Notes: a model not told the origin generated them from the letters alone. Shown: positions 7,279-64,000, counted from the first letter of the stretch. The stretch: 64,000 nucleotides of DNA from an uncultured Candidatus Saccharibacteria bacterium (GCA_964638425.1 CAZWYM010000002.1:2547-66546); one strand, 5' to 3'. Translations and numbers: made by a program.

Positions 7279-8076
7279 TTAGGAACTTGGTGCTGATGTC
7301 CAGGAAATTGCCCTATGGATTGGCGCGCTGCTTTTGATTAGCTTTACGACGATTTCAGGACACTTCTGTGGATCATACTTCACAATAACCTTCTGGTTGG
7401 CTGAACCTGGAAAGGCGACCGCTCGAATTGACTTTGTAAGCGTCTTCTTCGATTTAGCAGCGTTTTCAAGAACTAAAGCAGTTATGTATGCTCCGAGGCT
7501 CGTCTGCTCTTCCTTTAAACCAATTGAAATAGCCCTATTATGAGTCGCCATTTCCAGAAAAGGGGTCAAATCAGGTTTTATAATTAAATGAAACTGTGGA
7601 TATGAATTTCTGGCAAATGTTTCTTTTGCCAGAAAACTAGCCGTGACACTTTCAGGAATTTTAATACTATCCTTGTGACATTTTGCAACCCGAGATGCTG
7701 AGGGGAACACAATGACGAGAAGAGCATAGCCGTGCATTACCTTTAACTGATTTTCAGAATAAGGGACGTACATGAGGTCTACATTCTTTTTCAACTTTGA
7801 GTCGATGTGAAATAAACTCAACATCTCATCTATTGAGTGCATGTCTTCGCCAAATATCTCTTTTGCACGCCAGATTGGTGTACGCATTGCCTCGATACGT
7901 GACGCTTGTTCCTGCTCGACCAGAGCAACCTTTTTTGCTCTGCGTGTCGCTAATTTCGTGACAACAGCTTGCTTAATCCGGCTTGCACCAGCCCTAACTT
8001 TTGAGCGTACAGCCCCCCGTTTTGTTGTTGATGAAGTATTTCCTGTTTCTTTACTTTCTGCTTGTAAGCCAAACAT
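7279..8076 (-). CDS. hypothetical protein (265 aa) with a basic N-terminal region
   Basis: Long ORF with an ATG start. Co-oriented with the ribosomal cluster inside the rpsS-rplB insertion. No family recognised. Confidence 0.45.
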   Translation of the reverse strand: MFGLQAESKETGNTSSTTKRGAVRSKVRAGASRIKQAVVTKLATRRAKKVALVEQEQASRIEAMRTPIWRAKEIFGEDMHSIDEMLSLFHIDSKLKKNVDLMYVPYSENQLKVMHGYALLVIVFPSASRVAKCHKDSIKIPESVTASFLAKETFARNSYPQFHLIIKPDLTPFLEMATHNRAISIGLKEEQTSLGAYITALVLENAAKSKKTLTKSIRAVAFPGSANQKVIVKYDPQKCPEIVVKLIKSSAPIHRAISWTSAPSS

Positions 8077-8194: not shown

Positions 8195-8980
8195 TTACTT
8201 AGTATGCCTTTTTTGTATAAAAATGGCATACGGAGGCTTCTGCTTTTCTGGATTCGGGTCAAACCCCCCAAGGGTGCACATGAGCGGGGCTATGGTACTC
8301 GACTTGGGACCAAATCCTCCGTTTTGGTGAATAAACACCGGGACACCATTCTTGTGTGCAACACACACCATGAAATGATAGTCTGACATACCACTATTTT
8401 GATACATGTCTGCAAGATCTTCTGCTGACCAGACACTATGTTTTTCTCTTTTCCCTATTTCAAGAAATGAATTGCCTTCAGACTGCAGCTTCTTATTACG
8501 ACGATATAGCTGCCGGTGTTGCTTGGAAACTCGGCGGGAGTGATACACTTTTGAATAGTAAAATAGACAGAGTGTGTCGCCAACTTTGATACGTTGTCCT
8601 GTATACGTAGTCATCAGTCCTTCAAATATGAAGTGCCGATTACTTGTACATTCTATGAACACACCCGTTTTCAAGTAGTGGGCAAAAACTGAGCAGTTGG
8701 TCACATACTTGCCGTAGTAGTTATCAAGATATATACGTATCCGTTCTGAGAGCTCTTTGTCACTAATGTAACCCTGAACACTCGTAGTCGAATCACCACT
8801 TCCTTGTTCAAGGTTATATAACAAACTATGGCTCGTAATGTTTCTAGCCATACGCCGTCCTACCCTATTACCACGCGCATCACGTATATGACTTCCATTG
8901 GAAACCAACTTGTGCAACGCGTGATGCCCACCAACCTCCCTTGCTTCCGTCACTAACACAGAGACATTTTGTGAGTACAT
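8195..8980 (-). CDS. putative LRAT/NlpC-P60-superfamily (permuted papain-like) domain protein
   Basis: H-box-like GGHHALHKLVSNGSHI about 80 aa upstream of an NCSVFAHY motif, comparable to the HWAIYVGDGYVVH ... NCEHFV spacing of LRAT/HRASLS enzymes. Start placed at the ATG at 8978-8980, which follows an aaggaag SD; the track ORF starts at an upstream TTG. Confidence 0.4.
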   Translation of the reverse strand: MYSQNVSVLVTEAREVGGHHALHKLVSNGSHIRDARGNRVGRRMARNITSHSLLYNLEQGSGDSTTSVQGYISDKELSERIRIYLDNYYGKYVTNCSVFAHYLKTGVFIECTSNRHFIFEGLMTTYTGQRIKVGDTLCLFYYSKVYHSRRVSKQHRQLYRRNKKLQSEGNSFLEIGKREKHSVWSAEDLADMYQNSGMSDYHFMVCVAHKNGVPVFIHQNGGFGPKSSTIAPLMCTLGGFDPNPEKQKPPYAIFIQKRHTK

Positions 8981-9174
8981 TCTACTTCCTTTCAATGAAC
9001 AATATTGAAAATATTATAACATATATTTTGAATAAAGCAAAAATACCCCAAGCGGGGGGTATTTTCTTTATGCATGATTCTTTTAATATACAGCTTGGGT
9101 CTCAAAATCTATTTTGAATAAGATTTTGAGACAGACTCAGAAAATATAATCGCTACGCTCTTTATTTTCTGGCC

Positions 9175-9636: not shown

Positions 9637-11601
9637 TTACTGTAACTTTGCATGCTTCTTGAGATATTCATCAACTGTAATCACAAACTCTGCATGACTC
9701 CACACAAGAGGATCTGTGGAGAGATGCTCTCCGGTATATGGATGAATCTGTTCGGGAAGAATACCACTTGTTGTTGCCCTATCGCATACCCATAGCAAAA
9801 TTTCATGTGCTTTTTCCAAATCTTTTTTTGTTTTTGCCAAACGTATATTGTACCGAGCAATCCAAAGAGTTGTAATGCACCATGCATTTGGAGGCGCGTC
9901 GTTGCTAGTCTTAAAATATCGGTCTCCTTCATATCGCATATACCCTCCAAACGTTGTTGGTACTTTTAGTTTTTCGGTCATGTTTGTAAATGCTAACTGC
10001 ATTTTCTGATCATAAACGTCTAACACCCCGAATACAACTAGTCCAAAGAGACTGCTTATATCAACTGTTCCATCATACACAAGTCCTTTTTTTTCATGGC
10101 GCAAAGACTTAATAAAAGTTCCTGATGAAACATCAAATAGATAGGTTAAAATAGCAATTTTTATATGTTCTGCAATATCTCTATAACGTTTTGCATTATC
10201 GCGTTTTCCTAGGACTGCAGAAAGATCCGCCGCAGCACAGAGCGCTCCATACACCGAAGCGGCTGTGTATGTAGAAGAACCATATTTTTCTTCCCAAAGA
10301 TCGTAAGAATCCTTCGGCAATCCAGTTTCAGACTCCCTATACGTACACATGAAATCGGCTGCTGGTTCAATGAATGAATTATAGAGTGACTCAATAAACT
10401 CTAGATCTTTTGCATATACATAATGCTCTCCAAGCATATACAAAACTGTTGCCGTTTCGTCTTCCTGAATCGGCAATTTGAAAACACCATTTTGCAGCCA
10501 CGGATGCCATGAACTACCAAGAACTCCATCGACACGATACTTATGCATGAGATAACCATCTGTTTCTAACCGATCAGACATAAATGAAAAAAACCGTTGC
10601 GTGACATCAATATGCCCCGCTCGATCAAGTGCACCTGCAGTTATTGCGGCGTCGCGTGGCCAGACGTAGCTATACGTATCTCTCCCTTGGTTTAGGATAT
10701 CAGAATCTGATGAAGCTATGATTCCACCTCGATTATCTGTATGCATACGCATAATTACCAACGATCTTTTATAAAGTTGCTGGATATTTTTTTCGAATAT
10801 AGATAAATTGCGTGGTTCTTTTTCAGTCCACGCCTCCCAATATCGTTCGGTTGAAATCACGATTTCTGATGGTTTTGACTCAAGGATATGTTCGTGAATT
10901 CCATGCGCGTCATGTATTGATTTTGCTGCAACAACCCAGTAATAACATTCTGCACTTTGAGAACCCTTTGCTTCAAAAGTAAGCCCTAGCACAGAATCCA
11001 CCGATCCGTGTTCTATAGGATTTCGAGAAAGTATCCCGTCTTCAGCATCTTTGTACGTCCCCTGTTTTCCTTCAATATTAAAAAGTCCGACGCTATAATC
11101 TATAAACGCTATGTCGTTTATAGTTGCATGAATAAGAAAAGTATTATGCCCCTTATAGTGAACGATAGAACGTACCCGAGGATCATAAAACGCGGTATCT
11201 CCCCGTCTTGACTCTGAGATCCTAAACTCTTGCCCAAAAAAAATCTTTATCTCACGATTATAGTCACGTTCGTTGGTGATGATGACCTTCCGCAAAAAAA
11301 TATTTTTTTCATTGTGTACCACATCAGTAAAATGCAATCGAATTCCTTGTGTAGAGTTATACGCATCAATATCGCTTGATCCGGAAAATTCTGTATAGTT
11401 GATGTTTATGTTCCACGAATCATCGCTAAGCCATTTAATAGTACCGTCCACCCAGACACCTATTCGATGCACATACGAACCGCTTGCTCCACTCACATGA
11501 TTTGAATGCCCAACAAATGGGAAATAGAAATCACGGACTTGTCCTCGTCCATCAAGGCCAATGAGTAGACTGCCGTTTCCAATCGTAATTGCTCGAGACA
11601 T
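9637..11601 (-). CDS. glycoside hydrolase family 15-like (glucoamylase/glucodextranase-type), N-terminal beta-sandwich plus (alpha/alpha)6 domain
   Basis: 654 aa; YSYVWPRDAA motif and GH15 architecture. Confidence 0.65.
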   Translation of the reverse strand: MSRAITIGNGSLLIGLDGRGQVRDFYFPFVGHSNHVSGASGSYVHRIGVWVDGTIKWLSDDSWNININYTEFSGSSDIDAYNSTQGIRLHFTDVVHNEKNIFLRKVIITNERDYNREIKIFFGQEFRISESRRGDTAFYDPRVRSIVHYKGHNTFLIHATINDIAFIDYSVGLFNIEGKQGTYKDAEDGILSRNPIEHGSVDSVLGLTFEAKGSQSAECYYWVVAAKSIHDAHGIHEHILESKPSEIVISTERYWEAWTEKEPRNLSIFEKNIQQLYKRSLVIMRMHTDNRGGIIASSDSDILNQGRDTYSYVWPRDAAITAGALDRAGHIDVTQRFFSFMSDRLETDGYLMHKYRVDGVLGSSWHPWLQNGVFKLPIQEDETATVLYMLGEHYVYAKDLEFIESLYNSFIEPAADFMCTYRESETGLPKDSYDLWEEKYGSSTYTAASVYGALCAAADLSAVLGKRDNAKRYRDIAEHIKIAILTYLFDVSSGTFIKSLRHEKKGLVYDGTVDISSLFGLVVFGVLDVYDQKMQLAFTNMTEKLKVPTTFGGYMRYEGDRYFKTSNDAPPNAWCITTLWIARYNIRLAKTKKDLEKAHEILLWVCDRATTSGILPEQIHPYTGEHLSTDPLVWSHAEFVITVDEYLKKHAKLQ

Positions 11602-33337: not shown

Positions 33338-33414
33338 ATTGACTTGAAAAAGCGCATATGGTTTCATTCAGAAAGCACTCATTCTTGTTCATCGAAAATT
33401 TAAGGAGAACTACC

Positions 33415-34020
33415 ATGCAGAGGAGTATTTTTGTGTTACTTATCTTGTACGCCCTATTACCTCGACTCACCTTAGCAGAGGACTTGTCTCAACCATGCAA
33501 CACTTTTAACCCAGAGGCACAAACTTTCACCCCGTGCATTCCTGGAAATGAAATTGATGTTCGTAATGTATCTCAAGAGCTTCGCGAGCAAGGAATCACT
33601 CCCGACTCAGAAATTTTTGCTTCTGTATTAAAAGGACATGAGTATGTTATTACAAATTTGCAAATGCAGTTATCTCTCAGTTACACACCGGAAACAGGCT
33701 TCCACACGACCGTTAAAACACCGCGAGCACTCGAATTGATTCACGATTATTTCTTTCTTATATTAAATAGTTTTGCAGTAATTTCAGGGCTTATCACAAC
33801 GAGTCGGTGGTGGATACGTCCATTCTCTCTTGGACTCAGTATCTTAGTACCAATTTTTGGAGTCATCCAATTTATACGCGGGTACTCACTGTATTGGTTC
33901 CCTGTTGTTCCAATCGCTCTTGTCTCAATTTGTCTTGAATTTATTGTGTACCTTATATCCAGAGAGAAAAGGCCGGAAATCATAAGTCTAGTATCAAAAA
34001 TCAGACTGATAAAATGGTAA
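33415..34020 (+). CDS. membrane protein with signal peptide and C-terminal TM helices (201 aa)
   Basis: SD taaggagaac before the ATG at 33415. Flanked by the identical hairpins. Confidence 0.45.
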   Translation: MQRSIFVLLILYALLPRLTLAEDLSQPCNTFNPEAQTFTPCIPGNEIDVRNVSQELREQGITPDSEIFASVLKGHEYVITNLQMQLSLSYTPETGFHTTVKTPRALELIHDYFFLILNSFAVISGLITTSRWWIRPFSLGLSILVPIFGVIQFIRGYSLYWFPVVPIALVSICLEFIVYLISREKRPEIISLVSKIRLIKW

Positions 34021-57544: not shown

Positions 57545-58906
57545 TTATCCTTCAAATATTGGAGTTGCTACTGGGGCTTCCGAAACTTCCTCTGTACTCG
57601 TTGCGGACTCTTCGGGTTGCGCTTGCTCTTCGGTTGGATTCTCTTCAGTATTTTCAGACTCACTCTTAACACGAATGTGTTGCGTCATTGCTTCAATATC
57701 AGTTGCAAGAGCACGTGCTTCTATAAGGTATGATTCTGCTTCTTCCACACGAGGTACTGAGAGCGTCGTTGATGCGTTTGTAAGGAGACCATCGATCTGG
57801 AGAAGCCCTTCTGCAACCTTGTCATGAAGTCCATCATCTCCTTCCATTGCCTCAATTCTGAGACCTACCTCAGTCGCAATATTTCCTATTTCACTGTATT
57901 CCTTTTGAGCGAGTACTACTCGTTCCTCTGTACTGAGTATGACAGGTACTAGGGTTTCTAGTGTTACTGATTCTCGAATATCAATATCCGTCATAAATAC
58001 AATAAGTTTTTGGATGAGACCAAGCGTTGTTGTTAAGTCAGTAACGGCTGCCTCAGCTTCACCTTCATGCTTCCCTTTTGCTTCAAGGATGAGTCGATCA
58101 ATATCACTCAATCTTCGCTCAATATCATGAATTTCCTCACTGCTTGCAGAAAGTTTAATAGTTTCAAACAATTCATACACTCGTGTTGTCTCTAGCTCAA
58201 CCTTAGCAACAAGTCCATCAAAGGACGGCGCACTAGTCTCTTGGTTCGAAACAACCTCCTCTCGAGCCTCATTCACCACAGTTAGGAGTCCTTCGATGAG
58301 AGAAGCGTTCTCAGTACTTTCTTCTCCACCAAGCACCGCTGATTGCACCTCGAGTGACGAATTGAATGCAATCTCAGCGATTGCAGCTCCATCAGCATCC
58401 TGCGCACGAAGTTCACTGAGTCCGTGTTGCACAGCTTGCGTATGTTCCTTCACTGTCGCTGCAAGTTGTGTTTTTACCTCTTCGGTAAGCTTCCCTTCAC
58501 TTGAAAGTACTCGAGCCTCTGCAATACGACGTTCCATTAATTTTGTATCAAATTCAATCTTCTCATATGGAGTTGACGCAAGTTTTTCTTGGATAGCTTC
58601 ATTAAAGCCAGTCTTCACAAGATAGAGTGGGTCACCTGGAACAGACTTTTCAGCGATAAATGGAGCAATAATTAAAATAGCAACAAGAAGTCCTCCTGCA
58701 ATACGCGCATGAAATGCATTAAAATGAACCGCAATAAAAGATTCTGAAGGGATACTTTCGCGAAGGTCAGCTTGCGTCAAAATTTGCTTTGGAAGTGGAT
58801 GATACTCCATGTACGACAAAACACGTTCACGAAGCTCGCGTCGTTCAGAAACTTTCAGGTTTATTTTTTCTGCGTATTTTTTTAAATCAGTATCAAAAGA
58901 TTTCAT
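57545..58906 (-). CDS. putative anti-sigma factor (cytoplasmic N-domain, single TM, acidic extracytoplasmic domain)
   Basis: Overlaps the upstream ECF sigma gene by 4 nt. Membrane topology inferred from the hydrophobic segment LLVAILIIAPFIA. Confidence 0.45.
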   Translation of the reverse strand: MKSFDTDLKKYAEKINLKVSERRELRERVLSYMEYHPLPKQILTQADLRESIPSESFIAVHFNAFHARIAGGLLVAILIIAPFIAEKSVPGDPLYLVKTGFNEAIQEKLASTPYEKIEFDTKLMERRIAEARVLSSEGKLTEEVKTQLAATVKEHTQAVQHGLSELRAQDADGAAIAEIAFNSSLEVQSAVLGGEESTENASLIEGLLTVVNEAREEVVSNQETSAPSFDGLVAKVELETTRVYELFETIKLSASSEEIHDIERRLSDIDRLILEAKGKHEGEAEAAVTDLTTTLGLIQKLIVFMTDIDIRESVTLETLVPVILSTEERVVLAQKEYSEIGNIATEVGLRIEAMEGDDGLHDKVAEGLLQIDGLLTNASTTLSVPRVEEAESYLIEARALATDIEAMTQHIRVKSESENTEENPTEEQAQPEESATSTEEVSEAPVATPIFEG

Positions 58907-59559
58907 ATATTTGAATTCAACCGCCTGTTCTCTGCTTCATCCTCTGCCTTCTGAATTGTTTCCTTAAGGATTTTCAGTCCGCGATGGATGCGTACCGAGA
59001 CAACGTTCTCGGACTCCTCGATGAGTCCGCTTATCTCCTTTGGTCCCAATCCATCTACAAATCTGAGGATGAGGACTTCTCGGTAGACGAGAGGTAGCTC
59101 TTTCATAAGTTCGCTTGCCTTTTCTGCATCGAGTGCAAAGGTAAGCTCCTCAATACCGCCTCCATGAAGCTCGGGAAATGATCCTTCATCAGTCCCCTCT
59201 TCTGCAAGCAACGTGTCGAGAGAAAACTCCTTTCTCCTGCGGTACTCGTCAATAACAAGGTTGTTCATGACCTTGTAGAGAAATGGTTTGTACGAATCAA
59301 TCTCATGTCCTGCTCGTAGATAACTCCACGCCTTCGTAAAGGTGTCATGCACAATCTCTACTGCCCGTTCTCGGTCAGAGAGTCTGTATATTGCATGACG
59401 AAACAATGCATTAGAATATTCGTCAAATGCTTTCAAAAAACGCTCCTCGTGGCCTTCCACGATAGAGGCATTACCTGCTTTCCTTTTTGCCTTTTTTGGA
59501 TCTGTGGCCATGTGGAAACCATTATAAGCGATGACGGTCAAAAAACCCACTTCTTTCAT
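58903..59559 (-). CDS. ECF-type RNA polymerase sigma-70 family factor
   Basis: 218 aa, sigma-70 region 2/4-like (..FTKAWSYL.., C-terminal HTH). Confidence 0.65.
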   Translation of the reverse strand: MKEVGFLTVIAYNGFHMATDPKKAKRKAGNASIVEGHEERFLKAFDEYSNALFRHAIYRLSDRERAVEIVHDTFTKAWSYLRAGHEIDSYKPFLYKVMNNLVIDEYRRRKEFSLDTLLAEEGTDEGSFPELHGGGIEELTFALDAEKASELMKELPLVYREVLILRFVDGLGPKEISGLIEESENVVSVRIHRGLKILKETIQKAEDEAENRRLNSNI

Positions 59560-60956: not shown

Positions 60957-61072
60957 CCCAGATCAGGACGAAGACACCTTAAAGAACCAACAATCTTGGA
61001 GATTGTTGCGGTTTTCGAAGAAAAGTGTGGTCCGGGTCTTGCGATAGTCACCCAGACTATCTCACCCGTTCT

Positions 61073-61126
61073 CCCCGACAAATACGAAAAGACCGCCAAC
61101 TGGCGGTCTTTTCGTATTTGTCGGGG
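61073..61126. terminator. very long perfect hairpin ccccgacaaatacgaaaagaccgcc-aac-ggcggtcttttcgtatttgtcgggg (25-bp stem)
   Basis: Read directly from the sequence. Confidence 0.55.
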
Positions 61127-61320
61127 AATCGAAAATGTCTGAGTATATCGCAACAAGCCTGTGGCGAAGTGAAAAGGGAAAGATTCCCAATGTATGTGGC
61201 TATTTCTATATTACTAGCCACATTACTAAGTAATGTCCTTTATAACAGTGACATTCTCAAAAATAGGAGTATTATCGTGCACAGATTTGTTTCTCAAATA
61301 TTTTGACTAAGGGGGATCTG

Positions 61321-61509
61321 ATGAAAATGAAATACTTTGTTTCATATGTTACCAAACATGGTGACGAACCTTATGTATTTCTAAACTCGACAATAGAAAC
61401 TGAGGGTGAAATATCAACTGCAGATATTCAGAATTTCGAAAAGAAAGTTCGTTCTATTCGAGCAATAGACAAAGCGCAGGTCCTATTCTTTAATAAGATA
61501 GCTGGCTAA
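61321..61509 (+). CDS. small hypothetical protein (62 aa)
   Basis: SD taaggggga 6 nt before the ATG at 61321. Followed by the terminator at 61524-61556. The track ORF starts at an upstream ttg. Confidence 0.35.
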   Translation: MKMKYFVSYVTKHGDEPYVFLNSTIETEGEISTADIQNFEKKVRSIRAIDKAQVLFFNKIAG

Positions 61510-61523
61510 AAGCCATACATTTC

Positions 61524-61556
61524 AAGCCTTTGTTCCATGTGGAACAAAGGCTTTTT
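61524..61556. terminator. hairpin aagcctttgttcca-tg-tggaacaaaggcttttt; its stem contains one GTTCCA-NN-TGGAAC repeat unit
   Basis: Perfect 14-bp stem. Confidence 0.6.
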
Positions 61557-61595
61557 GTTTCACGTGGAACAAAATATACCTGTTCCACGTGGAAT

Positions 61596-61991
61596 CTATT
61601 CAAAAACCACATTATCAAGCATATGCACCTGCGCAAACTTTCTACGTGGAACTAAACGTACGGTAAGAATATCAATCTGAAATTCCCCAGTATATTTCCT
61701 ATCTGCAAGCCATGATTGAATTGTATTCTTCAACCTCCTTATCTTCTCATTATGCACATTCTCCTCAGGTCGCCACGTTTCATGTGAAACAGCATACTTT
61801 AATTCCTGTGTTGTTTCATATGAAACGGTTTTTACCTCGATAAAGTGAATTTTTCTTGTTTCACGTGCAACAATATCAATTTCCCCGTATTTCTTAAGGT
61901 AATTTCGGTCAATAATTTCATACCCATTAGAAACAAGCCATTTTGCTCCCAGATCCTCACCAATTTTTCCTATTTCGTTATGTTTAGCCAT
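61596..61991 (-). CDS. YraN-family (UPF0102) putative endonuclease
   Basis: ...GEDLGAKWLVSNGYEIIDRNYLKKYGEIDIVARETRKIHFIEVKT matches the YraN core (GEDLA..G..I..RN.R...GEIDLIA....VFVEVK). Confidence 0.65.
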   Translation of the reverse strand: MAKHNEIGKIGEDLGAKWLVSNGYEIIDRNYLKKYGEIDIVARETRKIHFIEVKTVSYETTQELKYAVSHETWRPEENVHNEKIRRLKNTIQSWLADRKYTGEFQIDILTVRLVPRRKFAQVHMLDNVVFE

Positions 61992-62281
61992 GTCGCTTCA
62001 TGTGGAACTATATAACAGAAGATACATTCATGCCAGTGTTTCACGTGAAACAATAACAAATATAATATATTGCGATATAATCGTTGATCTGTATGTTATT
62101 AGCCATTTTTTAAGGACATATTTATTAAAATTTTTGTCCTTTATACACATATCAACTCGTTTATCCCCAGTTATCCACCATGTGGATTTCTAGTAGAGGA
62201 TTTGTCTTTTATGGGGTAGGGGGATCGAAAGCTTACTTGAACAAAATCGAAACCTGACGGTTACTAATAACCAGTACTTGG

Positions 62282-62375
62282 TGTCAGGTTTCTAAGTTCG
62301 TTACACTCACTAAGAACCTCCTACCCGACCTCGCGGTTTCGCCATAAATTATAGGCGAAACATCGCTCCGGTTCA
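62282..62375 (-). repeat. R1 structured-repeat copy E (sense on the minus strand, 3' of tRNA-Gly-GCC), with an extra 3' hairpin at 62249-62290
   Basis: The reverse complement reads aaccggagcgatg-[tttcgcc tataatttatg ggcgaaa]-ccgcgag-gtcgggtaggaggtt-cttagtgagtgtaacgaacttagaaacctgaca. Confidence 0.8.
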
Positions 62376-62383
62376 CAAAACTA

Positions 62384-62411
62384 AAAAACACTGCGTAGGC
62401 AGTGTTTTTCT
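62384..62411 (-). terminator. hairpin aaaaaacactgc-gtag-gcagtgtttttc 3' of tRNA-Gly-GCC
   Basis: Perfect stem with A/T tracts. Confidence 0.6.
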
Positions 62412-62421
62412 TTACGTTTTG

Positions 62422-62492
62422 TGCGGCCAGGGGTAATCGAAACCCCGACTAATCCTTGGCAAGGACTCGTTATACCACTTAACCATGGCCGC
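62422..62492 (-). tRNA. tRNA-Gly (anticodon GCC), no encoded CCA
   Basis: Hand fold: gcggcca-tg-gtta-agtggta-taac-g-agtcc-tTGCCaa-ggatt-agtc-ggggt-ttcgatt-acccc-tggccgc-a. Confidence 0.8.
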
Positions 62493-62699
62493 ATGTATTA
62501 CTTCCGGAAGAAGTGACTAGGATTATAGTATTTATATGAGGGGAGTGCAATGTGGAAGGAGGGACTCGTCCCGCTTTTTCTAATTCGTTTCACTCATAAG
62601 TGCCCCCTGCCCGGAGGGACTCGAATTCTACAAATTCTGTTCAGGTTGTATGAAATTTATTCAAAATTTCGACAACCACTTCGGGTCCCTACGCATACA

Positions 62700-62735
62700 A
62701 ATTGAAAAAGACCCCATGAAGGGGTCATTTTCAAT
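62700..62735 (-). terminator. hairpin attgaaaaagacccc-atga-aggggtcattttcaat 3' of tRNA-Arg
   Basis: Long stem read directly. Confidence 0.5.
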
Positions 62736-62738
62736 TTG

Positions 62739-62810
62739 TGCACCCGGAGGGACTCGAACCCCCGACGACTGATCCGAAGTCAGTAATGATATCCACTTCA
62801 CCACGGGTGC
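62739..62810 (-). tRNA. tRNA-Arg (anticodon UCG), no encoded CCA
   Basis: Hand fold: gcacccg-tg-gtga-agtggata-tcat-t-actga-cTTCGga-tcagt-cgtc-ggggg-ttcgagt-ccctc-cgggtgc-a. Confidence 0.75.
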
Positions 62811-62873
62811 GGTGACGACTGGGATATCATACGTTCAAGAAGGCGAAATTGCAACGATTTTCTGCTACAATCT

Positions 62874-64000
62874 ATGCATATGATTGTCCGAAGTGAAATA
62901 CCAAAAGAAGTCCAGCATGTTGCAGATACTCTCGAACATCGAGGTTTTGAGGCGTATCTCGTAGGTGGTTGTGTCCGCGACTTACTCATTGGGAAGACTC
63001 CGAAAGACTGGGACATCACTACTGATGCACATCCAACTGAAATCGAGAGCTTGTTTCCTGATACATATCTCAACAATGACTTTGGAACAGTGGGTGTTGT
63101 TAATAAGGAAACAGAGAATGAGGCACTTCGAATAGTTGAAGTAACACCATTTCGAACAGAATCAGAATATTCTGATTCACGTCGACCAGATTCAGTTTCA
63201 TTTGGAGTTTCTCTCGCAGAGGATTTGAAGCGAAGAGATTTTACAGTAAACGCCATCGCCTACCGACTTAAGGATGAAAAAATAGTAGATCTCTTTGAAG
63301 GGGAGGGGGATATTAAACACAGACGCCTTCGAGCGGTTGGTGAGGCTACTGAACGTTTTAAGGAAGATGCGCTTCGCATGATGCGTGCAGTACGTCTTGC
63401 AGTTGAACTTGATTTTGTTATTGAAGGGGAAACGATGCGTGCAATTTCTGAAAATAGCGCTAACTTAGAACGAATTTCAAAGGAGCGTATTCGAGACGAA
63501 TTCATTCGTATCTTGAATTCGAAACAACCAATGCAGGGGATTATTTTCTTAGAAAAGCTGGGTCTTCTTCAGTATATTGCCCCAGATTTACTCACAGGTA
63601 TTGGTGTTGAGCAAAATCAAGCGCATGCATACGATGTATATGAGCACTTACTCCGCACTATGCAACACGCAGCGGATAAGGATTGGGATTTTGATATACG
63701 ACTTGCTGGTCTCTTCCATGATGTATCGAAGCCACACACAAGGCGGTGGTCTGATGAGAAAAAAGATTGGACATTCCACGGACATGAGGTGGTAGGTGCA
63801 AAAATGACCAAGAAGGCACTCCAAGACTTAAAATTCCCCCGAGAGAAAATCGAGCGCGTAGTGAAGCTTGTTCGGTGGCACATGTTTTTTAGTGACCCTG
63901 ACCAAGTGAGCCTTTCTGCGGTACGAAGAACTATTTCGAATGTTGGAGAAGAAAACATCTGGGACCTACTCAAACTTCGAAGATGCGACCGTATCGGAAC
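62874..64000 (+). CDS. cca: CCA-adding tRNA nucleotidyltransferase with C-terminal HD domain (3' end beyond the window)
   Basis: ...RGFEAYLVGGCVRDLLIGKTPKDWDITTDA... polymerase-beta head, then ...LFHDVSKP... HD region. Absent from the ORF track because there is no stop in the window. Confidence 0.8.
   Translation, partial: MHMIVRSEIPKEVQHVADTLEHRGFEAYLVGGCVRDLLIGKTPKDWDITTDAHPTEIESLFPDTYLNNDFGTVGVVNKETENEALRIVEVTPFRTESEYSDSRRPDSVSFGVSLAEDLKRRDFTVNAIAYRLKDEKIVDLFEGEGDIKHRRLRAVGEATERFKEDALRMMRAVRLAVELDFVIEGETMRAISENSANLERISKERIRDEFIRILNSKQPMQGIIFLEKLGLLQYIAPDLLTGIGVEQNQAHAYDVYEHLLRTMQHAADKDWDFDIRLAGLFHDVSKPHTRRWSDEKKDWTFHGHEVVGAKMTKKALQDLKFPREKIERVVKLVRWHMFFSDPDQVSLSAVRRTISNVGEENIWDLLKLRRCDRIG

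Follow-up and report, generated by a model that had tools for sequence, protein, structure and literature searches.

Genomic setting of yraN

The DNA analysed here is a single stretch of 64,000 nucleotides, referred to in the following as the window, which represents a chromosomal setting with a ribosomal-protein operon, tRNAs and housekeeping genes. Its minus strand carries at 61596-61991 an open reading frame of 131 aa that the preliminary description had called YraN-like. This assignment is corroborated by homologues and by a match to Pfam PF02021 (E=1.6e-19; 70.4 bits versus a gathering cutoff of 23.6), and the gene (yraN, UPF0102) is predicted to encode a PD-(D/E)xK-type endonuclease-like protein. 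Among 2123 YraN homologues, the named ones belong to the Kaiserbacteria and Paceibacteria (Patescibacteria/CPR). For comparison, an alignment of YraN homologues was used to retrieve 80 loci, each including up to 10 kb of flank per side, from the species-level genomes of Paceibacteria, Kaiserbacteria, Nomurabacteria and their relatives.

Downstream of yraN, the region 57545-59559 (minus strand) encodes a sigma factor of the ECF type and, after it, a DUF5667 protein that may be its anti-sigma partner. Together with CorA, both proteins are conserved neighbours of yraN in 57-72 of 81 loci (the 80 relatives and the window), located at +2.5 to +5 kb in the relatives. A 62-aa open reading frame (61321-61509, plus strand), which is convergent with yraN, was considered as a partner gene and rejected, having no counterpart in the 80 relatives; at 61336-61351 it contains TTGTTTCATATGTTAC, a degenerate half copy of the parS motif described below, which encodes V-S-Y-V-T. 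Elsewhere in the window, the open reading frames 7279-8076 (minus strand), 8195-8995 (minus strand) and 33358-34020 (plus strand), of 220-266 aa, matched no Pfam family at E<=0.001.

Upstream of yraN, a 223-aa protein with an N-terminal helix-turn-helix (HTH) domain (HTH_23/HTH_17) and a C-terminal part that matched no family is encoded at about -1800 to -870 of the yraN start in 66 of the 80 relatives (e.g. L080:4514-5185); in some relatives the gene contains additional parS-like sites or has them nearby. The protein is not found in the window, where two tRNA genes take its place. The search for known RNA families in 61000-62900 returned these two tRNAs and nothing else. Just after tRNA-Gly(GCC), a perfect hairpin with an 11-bp stem and T-runs on both strands (62384-62409) resembles a bidirectional terminator. 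Furthermore, a conserved element of about 170 nt was detected at ~62200-62380 (minus strand; core ACCGTCAGGTTTCGAT at ~62246-62261). It recurs in about 17 relatives (L005, L008, L009, L012, L025, L042, L054, L057, L063, L064 and others), where it lies at -257 to -1240. In its closing helix, GCGGCCAGG...CCCCTGGCCGCA, the 3' arm is identical to the tRNA-Gly(GCC) 3' end, to which the 5' arm is antisense. The element has no Rfam match and may represent a structured RNA or a tRNA-derived repeat.

A palindrome array in and around yraN

The segment 61531-62052 holds eight full palindromes and one half site, and the remaining 63.5 kb contain a single near-match. All copies that the preliminary description had reported in and around yraN thus exist, and most of its coordinates were right, those of the copies at 61541, 61583 and 61997 being off by 9, 1 and 2 nt, respectively. 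The 14-mers lie at 61532-61545, 61557-61570, 61582-61595, 61777-61790, 61813-61826, 61858-61871, 61995-62008 and 62038-62051, and the half site ACGTGGAAC at 61644-61652. Exact matches to GTTYCANNTGRAAC number five, all within 61532-62051, versus 0.02 expected from dinucleotide-preserving shuffles, which bears out the earlier claim of a density far beyond chance. At one mismatch there are nine matches versus 1.1 expected, eight of them within 61532-62051 and one at 10118. The concern that the motif might be a genome-wide background repeat did not hold within the 64 kb, given the single near-match outside the array.

With one flanking base added on each side, the 14-mer reads TGTT-N-CACGTG-N-AACA, which is the canonical chromosomal parS. 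parS is a 16-bp centromere-like site recognised by dimers of the partitioning protein ParB (Spo0J), and its consensus is reportedly TGTTNCACGTGAAACA. We used the consensus TGTNNCACGTGAAACA in the form TGTTNCACGTGAAACA and counted mismatches against a form free in both arms, TGTTNCACGTGNAACA. Three copies match TGTTNCACGTGAAACA perfectly (61556-61571, 61857-61872 and 62037-62052), six are within two mismatches of TGTTNCACGTGNAACA, and the imperfect copies range from one to four mismatches. All sites of the 64 kb with at most two mismatches fall within 61531-62052.

Following the window from left to right, the first copy (TGTTCCATGTGGAACA, 61531-61546) forms the apex of a terminator-like hairpin with a 13-bp stem and a subsequent T-run (61524-61553), located between the convergent small open reading frame and yraN, so that the earlier placement of this copy in a terminator stem was correct. 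It differs from TGTTNCACGTGNAACA at one position and from parS2 of Pseudomonas aeruginosa by one base (PMC4368675). Copy 2 (TGTTTCACGTGGAACA, 61556-61571), one of the perfect matches, follows at a distance of 25 bp, and after another 25 bp copy 3 (TGTTCCACGTGGAATC, 61581-61596), in which the left arm and the core are perfect and two mismatches are located at the right end, touches the yraN stop codon.

Within yraN, the right arm alone is intact in CTTTCTACGTGGAACT (61638-61653; codons V114-K118, VPRRK). It is followed by CGTTTCATGTGAAACA with two mismatches (61776-61791; V68-T72, VSHET), by the variant TGTTTCATATGAAACG with the core CATATG and retained dyad symmetry (61812-61827; V56-T60, VSYET) and by the perfect match TGTTTCACGTGCAACA (61857-61872; V41-T45, VARET). 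The peptides VARET, VSYET and VSHET are thus encoded by three intragenic copies as originally translated.

On the 5' side of the gene, a weak parS-like copy with four mismatches (CGCTTCATGTGGAACT, 61994-62009) is located 3 nt upstream of the yraN start codon and overlaps the predicted -10 hexamer. The outermost copy (TGTTTCACGTGAAACA, 62037-62052) in the 5' region of yraN is a perfect palindrome as well as a perfect consensus match and has a counterpart at this offset (about -60) in relatives.

The perfect parS of P. aeruginosa, from which the first copy differs by one base, is TGTTCCACGTGGAACA, and its ParB binds sites with one or two mismatches, alteration of the CACGTG core lowering the affinity (PMC4368675). 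Several copies in the window show such core changes (CATGTG, CATATG), a point against the ParB-loading centromere proposed below.

Conservation of the array in relatives

Sites resembling parS with at most two mismatches were found in or adjoining yraN in all 80 loci, and a position matrix built from 388 sites in the relatives reproduces the parS consensus. The sites recur at particular offsets from the start codon, namely about -60, +116/119, +164/167, +197/200, +335/341 and +400 to +460. At the same threshold their density amounts to 4-6 per kb between -200 and +600 of yraN versus 0.01-0.02 per kb in about 1 Mb of flanking sequence, the latter being near the level expected by chance. On average a locus holds 4.8 sites across about 530 bp. 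Neighbouring sites are most often 25 bp apart, as are the three copies 3' of yraN in the window. The window, in which three sites are perfect, ranks at the top among the loci.

Most relatives possess a full site at VPREK (GTT CCA CGT GAA AAR; +335 to +341), the position at which the window has its half site. By this comparison, the half site at VPRRK is a parS that has decayed in the window genome.

Selection on the DNA sequence of the intragenic sites

All four intragenic sites stand in the same reading frame, (T)GTT-NCA-CGT-GNA-ACA, which translates into V-[SAPT]-[RHY]-[EG]-T. Codon choice at these positions was compared across 81 genes with the codon usage of the same loci as background. 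At VSYET, a peptide whose conservation is partly ascertained, one of the two retrieval patterns having included VSY[EG], but whose codon choice is unaffected by the retrieval, the codons are GTT in 81 of 81 genes (background 0.28), TCA in 78 of 81 (0.24) and GAA in 75 of 75 (0.64). Similarly, VPREK is encoded with CCA in 68 of 69 genes (background 0.37) and CGT in 68 of 68 (0.27), and VARET with GCA in 48 of 59 (0.24). The p-values of these codon frequencies ignore phylogeny; the genes share 47-66% amino-acid identity and are randomised at other synonymous sites.

The information content of third codon positions points in the same direction, with averages of 1.26 bits for the 20 motif codons, 0.47 bits for the remaining 110 and 0.81 bits for those non-motif codons in which the residue is conserved to 90% or more. 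Third-base identity is just 44-47% for invariant glycines and prolines in the rest of yraN. At the VSHET site (61776-61791) the residues vary (H/R/Y with 43% agreement, E/G with 56%, S/T), whereas the third bases are 85-99% identical. The alternative residues are those that the free N positions of parS permit, NCA giving S, A, P or T and GNA giving E or G. The VSYET site (61812-61827) is the one most conserved as DNA in the relatives and retains perfect dyad symmetry (TGTTTCAT/ATGAAACA) despite the tyrosine codon.

Since synonymous positions are far more conserved in the motif codons, and at VSHET more so than the amino acids, the DNA itself has been selected; the intragenic sites are under selection at the DNA level. 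In the yraN orthologues the palindromes are preserved as nucleotide sequence, synonymous positions included, which goes beyond the mere peptide repeats that the preliminary description had named as the competing outcome.

The upstream element and its possible relation to a replication origin

Adjoining the outermost parS copy, positions 62053-62140 comprise the most AT-rich 88-bp stretch of the window (78% AT), which may serve in DNA unwinding, as the promoter region of yraN or as both. It is directly followed at 62141-62189 (plus strand) by tandem DnaA boxes, TTATACACA (62141), TTATCCCCA (62161) and TTATCCACC (62171), together with a weak inverted box at 62181-62189. Three of the boxes have at most one mismatch and lie inside 40 bp. 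The preliminary description had already raised an origin-type site, and origin-type features do indeed lie alongside the array.

In the relatives, equivalents of these boxes are located at -125 to -200 from the yraN start. DnaA boxes are enriched 23-fold between -200 and 0 when one mismatch is allowed and about 94-fold when perfect matches are counted, and 145 of 156 boxes share one orientation. The upstream layout is common to the relatives and consists, in this order, of two to four DnaA boxes of one orientation (TGTGGATAA-type, phased at about 10/20 bp), an inverted repeat, a TGnTATAAT-like -10 element, one or two parS sites and the ATG. The inverted repeat, AAGGACA-N17-24-TGTCCTT, stands beside the last DnaA box, its arms occupying 62112-62118 and 62135-62141 in the window and about -150 to -115 of the yraN start in the relatives, with conserved arms and a variable spacer length. 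It could be bound by another DNA-binding protein or belong to the promoter or unwinding region.

The unwinding modules of bacterial origins have been described as being composed of tandem DnaA boxes, a spacer, DnaA-trios and an AT-rich region (PMC8287927). Compared with this basal unwinding system, the element upstream of yraN is alike in its tandem boxes of one orientation with a phasing of about 10/20 bp, in directly flanking an AT-rich stretch and in a layout that is kept in relatives; it is unlike the system in that the window has no nearby dnaA or dnaN, no clear run of DnaA-trios and no change in the sign of the GC3 skew. Inspection of the sequence beside the boxes revealed no convincing DnaA-trio run. 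Neither the window nor the relatives' loci contain a DnaA homologue, and no dnaA or dnaN gene lies nearby.

A neighbourhood of dnaA and dnaN is usual for oriC but not obligatory. In favour of an origin, the bulk GC skew of the relatives shows a step from about 0 to +0.10 at yraN. On the plus strand of the window, opposite to yraN, nearly all 2-kb bins up to 62 kb have a negative skew, which is the same polarity as that downstream of yraN in the relatives. Gene orientation is likewise divergent within about 2 kb of the site. Evidence to the contrary comes from the GC3 skew resolved by gene strand (yraN strand, 10 kb per side), for which no inversion was observed. Its values are about +0.13 to +0.27 on the downstream side and about 0 to +0.12 on the upstream side; the skew drops in 45 of 51 loci and rarely turns negative.

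Since DnaA boxes and an AT-rich stretch adjoin it, the array is probably located at or near a candidate replication origin. We do not claim an oriC, because the third-position skew by gene strand shows no change of sign, and a DnaA-regulated promoter is possible instead, because the TGnTATAAT-like -10 element of yraN lies in the same stretch. Whether 62053-62189 represents oriC, on the one hand, or a DnaA-regulated yraN promoter or DnaA-box cluster, on the other, appears about evenly balanced. Proximity to the origin is a usual property of parS.

The presumed binding protein

Searches with regular expressions, tblastn and phmmer for genes encoding ParB, ParA and DnaA were negative for the 64-kb window and for up to 10 kb around yraN in the 80 relatives, which counts against the centromere reading given below. 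The ParB, ParA and DnaA queries of Bacillus subtilis were confirmed as strong Pfam matches. Pfam scans of the ParA- and ParB-sized open reading frames of the window likewise yielded no ParA or ParB, and the one open reading frame with 'GERR' turned out to be ribosomal protein L2. Our literature search for ParB or parS in Patescibacteria, or for a link between parS and yraN, returned nothing relevant.

We infer that ParB is present in the lineage, that it binds these sites and that they serve in segregation, the first of these because of the identity of the sites and the strong purifying selection on them. The preliminary description had remarked on the missing regulator gene in the vicinity; since ParB acts in trans and would be encoded elsewhere, no adjacent regulator gene is needed.

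Alternative explanations

The earlier view of an array for a dimeric DNA-binding protein that is superimposed on coding sequence has held up, but not its labels 'operator', 'iteron' or 'recombination site', as the motif is canonical parS. An operator array through which a local transcription factor, either the upstream HTH protein or YraN itself, controls yraN nevertheless deserves consideration, taking into account that the copies flank and overlap the predicted promoter and start codon of yraN and that the gene for the 223-aa HTH protein lies just upstream in 66 of the 80 relatives. However, this gene is missing from the window, which has the most perfect sites of all loci, and operators do not normally run through the regulated gene and past its 3' end. 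Moreover, the motif is not just any palindrome but identical in sequence to the pan-bacterial parS. We therefore regard control by a local factor as quite improbable.

The sites might also be origin elements bound by the initiator, that is, divergent inverted DnaA boxes (with the half site GTTCCAC compared to TTATCCACA) or iterons. TCCAC is indeed common to the half site and the DnaA box, and genuine boxes with an AT-rich stretch are only 90 bp away. The presence of standard TTATCCACA boxes next door, 145 of 156 of them in one orientation, makes a second recognition sequence unnecessary, though, the overlapping inverted 7+7 layout is foreign to the organisation of DnaA boxes, and the full 16-mer equals parS. 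An initiator array of this kind seems very improbable.

The third explanation would regard the DNA symmetry as a by-product, devoid of a function of its own, of a V-x-x-E-T peptide repeat needed by YraN, and VxxET-like peptides are in fact conserved among the homologues. It is contradicted by synonymous positions that are conserved far above background, by a codon choice at the motif positions that departs from the background bias and by the VSHET site (61776-61791), which is more conserved as DNA than as amino acids. Five more copies are located outside the coding sequence, and the intergenic copies occur at the same offsets in relatives. A purely peptide-level origin is hence scarcely credible.

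The one copy at the apex of the terminator-like hairpin might point to palindromes that have clustered by chance, that are hairpin or terminator repeats of a generic kind or that represent a dispersed repeat of the REP type. The probability of this is practically negligible in view of five exact copies versus 0.02 from shuffles, a sole near-match elsewhere in the 64 kb and three to four in-frame copies inside a gene that are conserved in 80 species.

Comparison with known centromeres and related sites

In sequence the sites do not stand out from the parS family; what is unusual is their density, their placement in and around yraN and the class-wide in-frame dual coding. As in the chromosomal parS sets of B. 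subtilis, P. aeruginosa and most bacteria, the same 16-bp palindrome is present as a mix of three perfect copies and copies with one to three mismatches. In contrast to these model sets, which are spread over kilobases to hundreds of kilobases, the array packs eight to nine copies into about 0.5 kb, at distances of 25 bp in some cases. Its host gene is yraN instead of parB, no parAB operon was detected at distances of up to 10 kb, or of up to 62 kb to one side in the window, and its in-frame intragenic sites are conserved across the whole class. An intragenic placement as such is known from B. subtilis, in which parS is found inside spo0J.

Clustered centromeres occur in Caulobacter crescentus (about 7 parS), Corynebacterium glutamicum (10) and Myxococcus xanthus (about 24). 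They resemble the array in grouping several parS for one partition complex near the origin, but span several to tens of kilobases beside parAB, whereas the yraN array is about ten times more compact and built into one small gene. The centromeres of plasmids and prophages, such as sopC of F (12 repeats of 43 bp), parC of R1 and parS of P1, are non-coding arrays and share with the yraN array the dense arrangement of partition-protein sites within a few hundred base pairs. In density the yraN array is closer to a plasmid centromere than to the dispersed chromosomal sets of model bacteria. Their sequences and cognate proteins differ, however, and the yraN array is of the chromosomal type in a chromosomal setting.

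The Noc-binding sites (NBS) of Firmicutes, with the consensus ATTTCCCGGGAAAT, are bound by the ParB paralogue Noc and dispersed over the chromosome. They are palindromes of similar length for a protein of the ParB family, whereas the yraN sites have the core CACGTG or CATGTG/CATATG, never CCCGGG, and are clustered. No paper describing a yraN-embedded parS architecture was found in the literature search.

A putative compact centromere

Based on the sequence of the sites, their clustering, their conservation in the relatives and the selection on the DNA, the palindromes are very probably parS sites that form a compact ParB-loading centromere of about 0.5 kb in and around yraN. Its setting, directly beside DnaA boxes and the segment of the window that is richest in AT, is as expected for an origin-proximal centromere. 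According to the established ParABS model, in which clamp loading, sliding and the steps involving ParA and SMC are known, ParB encoded elsewhere in the genome would bind each parS through its helix-turn-helix domain, and the dimer would close as a CTP-dependent clamp and slide onto the flanking DNA. The many closely spaced loading sites would give rise to one dense partition complex, which ParA, and possibly SMC, would use to separate the sister chromosomes. Considering that parS copies overlap the promoter, the start codon and the terminator of yraN, we speculate that ParB occupancy might affect yraN expression.

A more far-reaching proposal is put forward tentatively, as a possibility against which we lean on balance. 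The centromere of the Paceibacteria might be a cassette of about 0.5 kb with five to nine parS in and around yraN, fused to a replication origin some 100 bp upstream that consists of the tandem DnaA boxes together with an AT-rich unwinding element. The sequence V-[SAPT]-[RHY]-[EG]-T, present four times, would then have been dictated by centromere function throughout the history of the whole class, and YraN might act at this module.

The parS element itself does not constitute a new kind of system. With its recognition, a palindrome array that had lacked an explanation becomes an identifiable functional element, a putative chromosome centromere. As a code for DNA-binding sites that has long been kept on top of a protein code, the yraN array is useful for studies of dual-coding constraint. 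It possibly also provides a sequence marker for the centromere, and perhaps the origin, in Paceibacteria assemblies, and thereby a landmark for chromosome organisation in a large uncultured group of ultra-small bacteria with almost no known cell biology.
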